A stretch of 64,000 nucleotides of DNA from Candidatus Saccharimonadales bacterium (GTDB lineage: Bacteria; Patescibacteriota; Saccharimonadia; Saccharimonadales; Saccharimonadaceae), in NCBI GenBank assembly GCA_044340745.1, contig JBIISZ010000005.1:795-64794 (forward strand). Reading direction: 5' to 3'. The notes below the pieces were generated by a model. The model saw only the letters and a program-made list of their open reading frames with translations, was not told the origin of the DNA and ran no database searches. A program made the translations under genes and the position numbers. Shown here piece after piece: positions 6,106-15,384 of the stretch (positions are counted from its first letter, which is position 1; the number at the start of each line of letters is the position of its first letter).

Positions 6106-9100
6106 ATGAACCGCAAGGCACTGCTCCCTGTCGTCGTATCGCTGGGTGTATTTGTCGTCATCTTTGGTGTTGTCGCTCTGTACTTATGGAATGCGAGTCG
6201 CCAGACGGTTAGTTCAGAACGGTCACAACAATCAGTCAGCGCCGTGAAAGAGCTTCCGCAGCTCGAAGTAAACGATGAGCCTGTAGCTTCTACGAAACAA
6301 GTCATCGGTGGTGACTTGAAGGTGACGGGTACGGTCAGCATTATCGACGGCCTGTCGGCATCTTCATTGCAGCTTACTCCTGTAAGCTCGACTGCGAACC
6401 TTCGCGCAGGGCAATTATACTCAGCGAATAACAATGCATTGTACTACTACGACGGGCGAAGCTCGGCGAACATTACTGGCGGACTCAGTACCGCACAGGT
6501 CGATATCGCCCGACTTCAGACGGAAATGCAACGTATTCTCTCGCAGCCTGATGGTGTTCTTACACTCCAAGGTCAGAGCGGGAGTGTCGTCTTGGCGGGT
6601 GCTGATGGTATTACGATTACGGGCACAACTATTTCTAACAATGGTGTACTGACCGTTCAGGGCCGCGCCGGGAACGTGCAGTTTGTCAGTGGCAACGGCA
6701 TCGAAGTCTCAGGAACGACAATTAACAACACAGGTGTAACGAGCGTCGGTGGCCAAACTGGTACGATCGCGATTGGTAACGGCCTTTCGATTTCGAATGG
6801 TACTTTGGTGAGTACAGGAATTACTCAACTTATTTCTCAAAGCAGCGATATCATTGTGTCGAACGCAGGCGGGGGAGCCTACACCATTAGTTATGCTGGC
6901 TCGGGTGCCGGTGGTACGGTTGCCCTTGCTCCGACGAGTCCACAGGAAGATTCGAGTAACAACGCATCGATTGCATTTAATAAGACAGGTCTTGGTAACC
7001 TGATTCAATTAAGTACAGGGACAAATGCATCTAACAAGTTTGTCGTTGACCAATCCGGCGCAATTATTAACGGGAGTATCAACTTTAGCCAGGTAACCGG
7101 TATTCCTAGCTTGGTGAATTCTATTGCAGGGTTGACGGGTACGGTTGACCTCGGTGCCGGCCTTGCGGTCAATGGCGGGCGGCTTGTTGCGACAACTGCC
7201 GTAAACAACCTTGTCGGAACGGCAAACCAGGTAAATGTTACCGGTAGCGGAACATTGACTTTATCATTACCACAGAACATCGCGACAACTTCATCACCAA
7301 CATTCGCCGGCCTTACCCTGACAAACGCATTGACGATCGGCAACGGTGGTACGGGTGCAACCACGGCGAGCGGTGCTCGGACAAACCTTGGTGCTGCGGC
7401 AAGCGGCGCGAACAACGATATCACCTCGCTTTCAGGCCTGACAACAGCATTGTCAGTTGCGCAGGGTGGTATAGGCACGAACACTCTGACGCAGAACGGG
7501 GTGTTGATCGGCAATGGTACTGACGCGATCTCAAGTGTGAACGCCACTGGTGCTAACCAGTGTCTCGTATCTGACGCGAACGGAGAAGTAAGCTTCCAAG
7601 GGTGTCCTGGTGCTGGCGGCGTGACGAGCGTCAACGGGAAGAGTGGCGTCGTGACAATCGCCGGTGTCGACCCGAACAGTATTGATTCGACGGGTGGTAC
7701 GATCGTGATTCGCGATGCTTCTTACACCACGAAGGGTCTGGCATCATTCAACGCGACGAACTTCTCAGTCTTGAACGGAAGTGTGAACACTGCACAAGAT
7801 ATCAACGTCGGCGCAACCCCGACATTCGCTGGGCTGAACCTCACGAGCGCGTTAAGCGTTGCAAATGGTGGTACCGGCCGCACAACGTTCGCGACGAACG
7901 GCCTGCTGCTCGGGCAGGGTACTGGTGCGCTGTCTACTGTCGGAACGACGACGGCTGGTCAATGTCTTGTCTCTGGTACTGGTGGAGTCCTCGGCTTCTC
8001 AACCTGTCCTGGCGCAACTGGCGTGACGAGCGTGAACGGCCTGACCGGTGCGATAACTGTCAGTACTATCGCAGCCTCAAGCCTTTCGCAGGTAGGGAAC
8101 ACAATCACGATCAATGATGCGACTGAAGCTATCAAGGGATTAGCTGCGTTCAACGAAGATAACTTCGTCGTCACGAACGGCGTCGTGAATACGATTCAAA
8201 ACATCAGCACCAGCGCGACCCCGACATTTGCCGGGTTGAACCTCGATAGCGCGCTTGCGGTAACAAGCGGTGGTACCGGTCGCACGAGCTTGGCGGCCAA
8301 CAGTATCCTGGTTGGTAACGGCACGAGTGCTGTTTCGACATTAGGTACGACCGTCGCTGGCCAATGTCTTGCTTCCGGCGTCGGTGGTGCGCTCAGCTTC
8401 GTAACGTGTCCGGGTGCTGAAGTCGTGAATAGTTTGAATGGTCAAAGCGGCAATGTCAGTATCACCGCGATCGACCCTTCAAGCATCAATACTGCCAGTG
8501 GCGTCATTACTATCCGCGACGCTTCATACACCACGAAGGGCCTGGCGTCATTCAACGGCAGCAACTTCAGCGTCATCGATGGCGCAGTCGATACGGTTCA
8601 AAACATCGGCACGACCGCGACCCCAGTATTTGAAGGGCTGACCCTTAACTCGGCTCTCGGTGTCGCTAGCGGTGGTACCGGTGCAAGTAGCTTTGCAGCC
8701 AACAGCTTGCTTATCGGGCAAGGTACCTCAGCTGTCACGAGCCTAGGAACGAACACTGCCGGTCAGTGTCTGATTTCTGGTACAGGTGGGTACCTATCGT
8801 TCGCATCATGCCCTGGTTCGAACGGCGTCGCGAGTATCAACGGCCTCATCGGTGCGGTGACACTTCGTGGTATTTCAGCGTCGAGCGTGCTGACGAGTGG
8901 CTCAACGGTGACAATTCAAGACGCGACCGATACGATCAAGGGACTAGCTGCGTTCAACAGCAGCAACCTTGTCGTCACAAATGGTGTCGTGAACACGATC
9001 CAGGACATTTCAGTGAACGCTGCACCGACATTTGCCGAGCTTACGCTGACCAGCCCGCTGGCAGTCAGCAGTGGTGGTACCGGTCGTACGACATTCGCTT

Positions 9101-15384: not shown

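Follow-up and report, generated by a model that had tools for sequence, protein, structure and literature searches.

The window analysed here is a 64,000-nucleotide (nt) stretch of contig JBIISZ010000005.1 from Candidatus Saccharimonadales bacterium (assembly GCA_044340745.1). Its largest feature is a giant gene of 9,279 nt encoding a protein of 3,092 amino acids (aa), which an earlier sequence-only reading had described as a cell-anchored fibre made of modules like those of phage tail fibres. The gene takes up 14.5% of the window, close to the 15% given in that reading. The ATG at 6106 is likely its start codon, since the residues MNRKALLP are kept in three orthologues while the preceding residues and codons vary; the stop codon of the upstream gene ends 1 nt ahead of this ATG. 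A scan for promoters and terminators gave background levels. In composition the protein is 60% Gly, Thr, Ser, Ala and Asn taken together, with one His in total. Its parts are as follows.

6106..15384, + strand: giant gene, 3,092 aa plus stop; alternative TTG start at 6097
6118..6189, + strand: N-terminal transmembrane (TM) anchor, aa ~5-28, ALLPVVVSLGVFVVIFGVVALYLW, hydropathy maximum 2.84
6190..7185, + strand: proximal region, aa 29-360, a low-complexity linker and then short GV..G..G.V-type repeats
7186..7608, + strand: half unit (C sub-module) with insert 1, ARTNLGAA/GANNDITSLSGLTT (nt 7375)
7609..9216, + strand: units 1-4, 134 aa each
9217..9504, + strand: unit 5, broken off after GGTG
9505..10176, + strand: insert 2 (ARTNLGAA..GANTDIT, nt 9505) and a ~190-aa non-unit module
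10177..12705, + strand: units 6-11, unit 7 with the 40-aa insert 3, ARNNLGAA/GANSDIT (nt 10864)
12706..13827, + strand: distal non-unit modules, aa 2201-2574, with three Cys-pair hairpins and the widely shared SGNGAALTSLNASNIASGTV motif (aa ~2212-2298)
13828..14535, + strand: two QGGNAFN...GRIK modules, 116 aa each, one Cys pair each
14536..14955, + strand: Peptidase_G2-like beta-barrel, beginning S2811|D2812-L-A-E2815 (putative autoproteolytic site)
14956..15381, + strand: linker (aa ~2951-2993) and terminal beta-sandwich (aa ~2994-3092)

Modules and repeats of the giant protein

Hydropathy bears out the earlier description of one open reading frame (ORF) with a single N-terminal TM helix: 19-residue windows with a Kyte-Doolittle mean above 1.6 start only at aa 1-14, and the protein has no other hydrophobic segment. 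The position of the anchor is the same in orthologues and in P0021, a distant syntenic gene product considered below. The helix is probably an uncleaved signal anchor, because its h-region is long (~24 aa) and is not followed by a small-x-small cleavage site. The adjoining proximal region is common to P0021 (40% identity, aa 1-635) and to P0002 of a Saccharimonadales metagenome-assembled genome (MAG), and it gave zero Pfam or PDB matches.

The eleven units of ~134 aa that had been counted by eye are recovered both by motif spacing and by BLASTP. The motif DAxxxxKG[LV]A[SA]F[ND] is found at aa 537, 671, 805, 939, 1073, 1393, 1526, 1700, 1834, 1968 and 2102, with a period of 134 aa. Units are 40-72% identical to one another, and all 55 unit pairs align with E values from 2e-64 to 5e-24. 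An insert of ~224 aa interrupts unit 5 after GGTG. The three ARxNLGAA/GANxDIT inserts of the sequence-only reading are present at nt 7375, 9505 and 10864. After the second of them comes the ~190-aa module, in which Cys residues lie close together at aa 1217/1223 and again at aa 1346/1349; it shares 58% identity with P0021 aa 397-586 and is found also in P0057, P0046 and P0041. The QGGNAFN...GRIK module is likewise repeated twice, as had been noted, with QGGNAFN at nt 13855 and 14203 and GRIK at nt 14047 and 14395; identity between the copies is 43% (E 9e-28). All 36 Cys residues of the protein fall into 18 pairs, whose partners lie 3-22 residues apart.

No 402-nt array was detected at the DNA level by Tandem Repeats Finder. 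The repeats are therefore of ancient origin and did not arise in assembly. Metagenomes of sludge and of lake water, assembled independently, also yield the complete gene. Two local variants were seen in such data. In sludge run X1, an otherwise near-identical strain differs at dozens of sites within nt 12012-12747 (units 10-11), the differences being spaced mostly in multiples of three; the pattern resembles that left by recombination, or by gene conversion, between strains or units. In lake run X3, one low-depth contig (2.7x) links nt 7349 to nt 11248, with 22 unmatched letters between them. The junction could come from a minority variant without ~3.9 kb (units 1-7), from a related strain, or from misassembly over the repeats.

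Phage relatives of the unit and the C-terminal cassette

That motifs of this protein occur in phage tail fibres had been stated in the sequence-only reading, and the matches to 7z47_D, 8vbx_R, FtbO and tail-fibre ORFs of phage contigs agree with it. The stretch ARxNLGAA..GANxDITSLSGLTTxLSxxQGGTG is almost residue for residue like 7z47_D, the SU10 "putative tail fiber", and 8vbx_R, a "tail fiber (gp47)", with E values from 7e-6 to 9e-7; the half-unit region matches them at E 8e-6 and E 9e-7, respectively. Positions 1-50 of the unit profile align with each of the two stalk repeats in FtbO (9j1l, E 0.005), a trimeric rod in the Listeria monocin side fibre (PMC11830787). The same order of sub-modules is seen in these three structures, which are trimeric beta-structured rods. 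However, the phage and tailocin fibres are parts of virions or tailocins, have 150-1,300 aa and 1-7 sub-modules, and are without a membrane anchor. A PDB sequence search with aa 2201-2810 gave no matches, and a tblastn search with units 6-8 against 50,697 GenBank phages also gave none. Thus the phage link is visible only by profiles or short motifs.

Relatives of the unit are encoded at 60 loci in IMG/VR. The carrier at locus L016 (1,024 aa) matches "long tail fiber distal subunit" PHROGs and lies near tail sheath and virion structural genes. The carrier at L004 (7755-10688) is a tail-fibre protein of 977 aa, in which a GGTG module, a PTFAGL..GGTG module and DATTSNKGIASFD follow one another; its region after DATTSNKGIASFD resembles a beta-helix by eye. 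It should be noted that this phage fibre and P0021 share a plan, in which GGTG and PTFAGL modules are followed by a beta-helix, assigned by Pfam in P0021 and by eye in L004. The motif at aa 2239-2298 is present twice in P0027 (1,167 aa), whose gene lies on a 75-kb phage contig together with those of a capsid protein, SU10-type adaptors, a holin and a GH108 endolysin. P0027 was considered as a carrier of the C-terminal cassette and was rejected, BLAST showing that only the aa 2239-2298 motif is in common.

An exhaustive profile search found many proteins that match unit positions 1-82 alone, and many others that hold 20-49 copies of unit positions ~72-132. Viral ORFs hold sub-modules only, 1-7 per protein. 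Only one viral copy extends across the two Cys positions, and these are V and I in it, unlike in the units of the window protein. Of the copies in the 148 best representatives, 197 extend that far, and 174 of them have both Cys. Since the sub-modules occur separately and viral ORFs hold sub-modules only, the 134-aa unit is two phage sub-modules fused, supplemented with a Cys pair and amplified in tandem.

At E <= 1e-3 the unit has matches in 3,936 cluster representatives, a number that falls to 637 at <= 1e-10 and to 121 at <= 1e-30. Many unit-bearing representatives are 2,000-5,500 aa long and lie on contigs of up to 1.1 Mb; all those that are named carry "hypothetical protein" or a generic adhesin label. 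In relatives, the same modules are joined with obligately trimeric elements, namely collagen repeats (PF01391) and the Peptidase_S74 chaperone.

The C-terminal end was modelled with AlphaFold2 (AF2) over aa 2799-3092, using 44 homologues, with a mean predicted local distance difference test score (pLDDT) of 93. The model has a beta-barrel at aa ~2813-2939 (pLDDT >90), a linker of ~55 aa that is coil in the monomer, and a terminal beta-sandwich at aa ~2994-3091 (pLDDT 96-98). A Foldseek search of BFVD with the barrel returned many proteins of uncultured Caudovirales (E 4e-11 to 1e-7; root-mean-square deviation 2.2-3 Å over 130-150 columns; 25-34% identity), among them entries labelled "Preneck appendage protein" and DUF2190. 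Fold matches in the PDB are mostly H-type lectins (SLL-2, Helix pomatia agglutinin, discoidin I/II), heads of phage receptor-binding proteins (RBPs), including that of TP901-1, and C-termini of tailspikes. The H-type lectins have E values of 0.06-0.5 and TM-scores on the target of 0.4-0.55, with SLL-2 at E 0.06 and 0.55. As modelled, the terminal beta-sandwich weakly resembles a trimeric H-type lectin or a phage RBP head.

Among the 44 homologues, Pfam assigns Peptidase_G2 to 8, Peptidase_S74 to 5, XM1_gp53 to 2, and H_lectin (PF09458, 7e-5) and a phage cement protein to 1 each. The best homologue for Peptidase_G2 (PF11962) is P0350, with E 1e-5 and 25.5 bits against a cut-off of 25. Peptidase_S74 (PF13884, SDxxxK motif) is absent from the window protein by profile scan. 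Alignment with the C-terminus of phi29 gp12 by hhalign (probability 61%, E 8e-5) pairs NNS-DLAENY..LMGVVSTAP with TWS-DFAEYF..IIGVISETA, the self-cleavage segment of gp12. Asp and Glu are the catalytic residues of MEROPS family G2. The phi29 chaperone has a beta-stranded body, and Ser is the last mature residue (PMC4690869). By this alignment, both proteins appear to have a C-terminal beta-stranded domain that opens with S|D-x-A-E-x-[YF] and continues with a GVxS motif, but the window protein has ~150 aa more after the barrel, formed by the linker and the beta-sandwich.

Many of the giant proteins that bear the unit have a D-[LYF]-A-E-x-[YF] motif, placed 240-330 residues before their C-terminus. 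In P0013, P0307 and P0319, Peptidase_S74 stands in the place of the barrel, upstream of the same terminal domain, and in P0309 S74 and the barrel are found in tandem. By profile and model, the last 281 aa appear to be a phage-type end cassette, the standard end-piece of this fibre family. Two fates of the cassette are rated about equally likely: it may be retained as a tip resembling a lectin, or it may be removed after folding, having served as an intramolecular chaperone. With cleavage at S2811|D2812 the fibre would end in a different tip. The cassette and the composite origin of the unit are new relative to the sequence-only reading.

Orthologues and a candidate role as a surface fibre

The N-terminal 500 aa were used as a query in the orthologue search, and the identities of this paragraph refer to them unless stated otherwise. 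The same locus is found in Candidatus Saccharibacteria bacterium 47-87 (82% identity, on a 900-kb contig), in isolate NP70 (69%), in UBA8109 (76%) and in two further "Patescibacteria group" MAGs. The orthologues come from Candidatus Saccharibacteria MAGs, in keeping with the episymbiont lineage that had been supposed. The representative of the 50% cluster, P0138 (OJU87984.1, "hypothetical protein", Candidatus Saccharibacteria bacterium 49-20), has 3,089 aa and is 78% identical to the window protein end to end. The orthologues of 47-87 and NP70 have 3,087 and 3,169 aa and the same flanking genes. Full-length orthologues are 76-80% identical, with the same locus in at least two other genomes.

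In the aligned orthologues the eleven units pair one-to-one, all 36 Cys columns are invariant, and indels are short and confined to aa ~2300-2720. Orthologue pairs have 0.10-0.31 nonsynonymous substitutions per site (dN), with synonymous substitutions (dS) above 1 or saturated. Synteny, one-to-one units, invariant Cys and low dN with saturated dS together indicate, at the level of sequence, that the locus is old, vertically inherited and under strong purifying selection. The distant syntenic gene, which encodes P0021 (1,437 aa; locus L001, 1577-5890), lies in the same four-gene arrangement. P0021 retains the N-terminal 635 aa and the last ~145 aa; its middle has a single unit, a NosD/pectate-lyase-type beta-helix and an FN3-like piece in place of most units. 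At larger evolutionary distance the locus is mosaic, and the plan that P0021 shares with the L004 fibre suggests that whole distal halves have been exchanged between phage and cellular fibres.

The explanation favoured here, at a probability of roughly 0.55, is that the protein is a chromosomal, vertically inherited surface fibre of the Candidatus Saccharibacteria cell, built of phage tail-fibre blocks and used for attachment. It is favoured because of the architecture, the cellular context, the conserved orthologues, the TM helix, the matches to fibre structures, the sub-modules in phage tail-fibre ORFs, the confident C-terminal model with its barrel like preneck appendage proteins, and the trimeric elements in relatives. 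It is favoured also because in P0021 a pectate-lyase-type beta-helix takes the place of most units, in the manner of phage tailspikes, and because the MAT family of Bdellovibrio gives a precedent of phage-like trimers on the surface of a bacterial predator (PMC10769870). The interpretation of the sequence-only reading is supported in part, namely by the phage-fibre motifs, the episymbiont lineage and the N-terminal anchor.

In such a fibre, the single N-terminal TM helix would anchor the protein in the cytoplasmic membrane with the remainder outside (N-in, C-out). Three chains would co-fold into a beta-structured rod like the homologous phage modules, folding and trimer registration beginning at the C-terminal cassette, as in phage fibres with intramolecular chaperones. 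The eleven 134-aa units would be a stalk that sets the length. One invariant Cys pair would pin each unit, either as a disulfide staple of the 14-residue hairpin or as an axial metal site by analogy with the His-Fe sites of FtbO; FtbO itself uses His pairs with iron, whereas the window protein has a single His. The distal end would bind a ligand, most likely a glycan of the envelope of the host bacterium, through the lectin-like domain if it is retained, or through the QGGNAFN modules if the protein is cut at S2811|D2812. The MAT fibre Bd3182 has 922 aa and a model ~55 nm long (PMC10769870); by the same ratio, the ~2,800 residues outside the cell would span roughly 150-200 nm.

Several results weigh against this explanation. 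Between species the tip is not more variable than the stalk (dN 0.19-0.27 against 0.13-0.18), and is thus a poor fit to a receptor binder in an arms race. Pfam and PHROG scans of the whole protein and of six segments gave nothing above threshold, the window protein lying below every Pfam threshold, including those of PF11962 and PF09458. The PDB Foldseek matches of the terminal domain are weak, all with E >= 0.05, and phi29 gp12 (3SUC) is not in the top 50 PDB fold matches. The AF2 monomer model of two units, from an alignment of 6 rows, has a pLDDT of 41; it argues neither for nor against a trimer. Finally, only a few short matching contigs were found in one run guessed to be RNA.

The constancy of the tip fits a surface fibre that is not a specific adhesin, and could be a structural or protective part of the envelope, such as a spacer, a coat that replaces an S-layer, or a decoy for phages with similar fibres. 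The whole protein, tip included, is highly conserved across species with saturated dS, and the number of units is fixed in three genomes. The genome already has many pilin-type proteins with lectin heads (LamG, PA14, FN3), which might provide for adhesion, and in Saccharibacteria it is type IV pili that have experimental support as the organelle of adhesion (PMC10633639). However, every recognisable module derives from receptor-binding fibres, and the distal half of the distant syntenic orthologue is quite different, as would be the case for a ligand-directed protein. A role of this kind is considered unlikely.

Somewhat less probable still is a monomeric fibrillar adhesin, in which each 134-aa unit is an independently folding beta-sandwich, as in Gram-positive adhesins with Ig-like repeats. 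Tandem stalk repeats with a terminal binding domain are the generic plan of fibrillar adhesins, and very large surface proteins with adhesion domains are reported from other Patescibacteria (PMC13059738). The sequence-only reading would have given way to units that model as monomeric, non-fibrous folds, but AF2 returned no confident compact or autonomous fold for two units, though from the 6 alignment rows only. Moreover the unit divides into two sub-modules that are found apart in trimeric phage fibres, the relatives bear trimer-only chaperone and collagen elements, and an LPXTG motif is absent. A sortase-anchored LPXTG adhesin was also rejected as an identity, since [LIV]Px[TSA]G does not occur in the protein and its C-terminus lacks a hydrophobic segment. 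A trimeric autotransporter was rejected as well: the protein has no Pfam match to a YadA-type barrel, a soluble beta-sandwich at its C-terminus, and an N-terminal anchor.

A prophage or tailocin tail fibre lying in the window by chance is effectively refuted: its modules are homologous to phage fibres, but housekeeping genes lie on both sides, capsid, tail, baseplate, integrase and lysis genes are absent, the locus and its flanks are preserved in four genomes, the N-terminus is a TM helix and not a baseplate-attachment domain, and the G+C content of the gene runs on evenly from the flanks.

For the surface attachment fibre, the Bdellovibrio MAT family (Bd3182, Bd2133; PMC10769870) would be the closest known functional analogue. 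MATs are also chromosomal, phage-fibre-like and mosaic, in a bacterium that lives on other bacteria; their C-terminal ends are swappable and include autoproteolytic chaperone domains, with or without S74, and the fibres are on the cell surface before prey contact (PMC10769870). They differ in having ~1,000 aa and a cleavable signal peptide ahead of a conserved N-domain of ~130 aa, which attaches them to a Gram-negative surface (PMC10769870), whereas the window protein has 3,092 aa, an N-terminal TM helix followed by an unrelated-looking linker, a stalk of 134-aa Cys-pair super-repeats, and an end cassette that is G2-like and not S74. PDB searches with the window protein gave no sequence match to the solved MAT fragments. 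The giant surface proteins reported from Patescibacteria (Absconditicoccaceae, Saccharibacteria) are likewise very large, have a TM helix or signal peptide and are proposed host-interaction factors (PMC13059738; PMC10633639), but they carry FN3, VCBS, dockerin, integrin-like or concanavalin domains. In a literature search of incomplete coverage, no paper was found that ties Patescibacteria adhesins to tail-fibre modules. A cell-borne phage-like fibre is of a known kind; this one would have a previously undescribed 134-aa Cys-pair super-repeat and a G2-like end cassette.

To our knowledge, how Patescibacteria find and hold their hosts is largely unexplained beyond type IV pili. The giant gene amounts to ~1% of a ~0.9-Mb genome and is conserved under strong purifying selection. 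As a conserved gene that reuses phage receptor-binding architecture, it is a concrete and testable candidate for host recognition. The 134-aa unit is an uncharacterised domain family without a Pfam or PHROG model. The idea of MATs would extend to a second, unrelated host-dependent lineage with a different anchoring of the fibre. A broader and more doubtful proposal is that Saccharibacteria, and probably other small-genome bacteria in which the thousands of related giant proteins occur, have domesticated phage receptor-binding modules into a chromosomal, membrane-anchored fibre of ~150-200 nm, which matures by a self-cleaving C-terminal chaperone and determines the host cells that the epibiont recognises. 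If this were true, the host range of the epibiont would follow the modular, tip-swapping logic of phages.

Neighbouring genes and other surface proteins of the window

By gene content the window is cellular DNA, and the giant gene sits between an F-ATPase operon and an M14 peptidase region. Other genes of the window encode ROK, S1, IF-2, Fmt, PriA, RecJ, IleRS, FtsA, FtsZ and LCP. No tRNA, Rfam family or phage gene was detected in it. The nearest genes are the following.

741-5101: F-type ATP synthase delta, alpha, gamma, beta and epsilon subunits
5328..6104, + strand: upstream gene, 258 aa, with a signal peptide, a ~120-aa ectodomain and two C-terminal TM helices
15492..15995, + strand: conserved 167-aa single-TM protein without a family match, directly downstream of the giant gene
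16062-18017, + strand: M14 zinc carboxypeptidase with a Big_5 domain, after the 167-aa gene

The ectodomain of the 258-aa protein has a weak likeness to the C-terminal barrel of the giant protein (hhalign probability 40%, E 3e-4) and matches Pfam XM1_gp53 at E 0.03. The pair formed by its gene and the giant gene is syntenic at the loci of four genomes (L001, L063, L064 and L065). The 258-aa protein may be a membrane partner or a docking site of the fibre. The 167-aa and M14 genes trail the giant gene in every syntenic locus seen (L001, L063), and it is conceivable that their products take part in processing of the fibre or of the cell wall.

Five proteins encoded on the + strand have a type IV pilin N-methylation motif (19943-20488, 36286-37278, 38054-38848, 44209-45171 and 55369-57885), and four of the five also bear lectin or adhesion heads (two LamG, PA14, three FN3). 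They are likely adhesins, forming a second set within the window that is carried on pili. A 1,378-aa ORF at 24422-28558 (+) has zero Pfam matches and is without the 134-aa unit. At 51498-54308 (+) lies the gene of a 936-aa right-handed beta-helix (NosD/Beta_helix) protein with a Big_13 domain, adjoined by that of a CAP (cysteine-rich secretory protein) family protein at 54373-55323 (+). Both of the latter are probably secreted or surface proteins.

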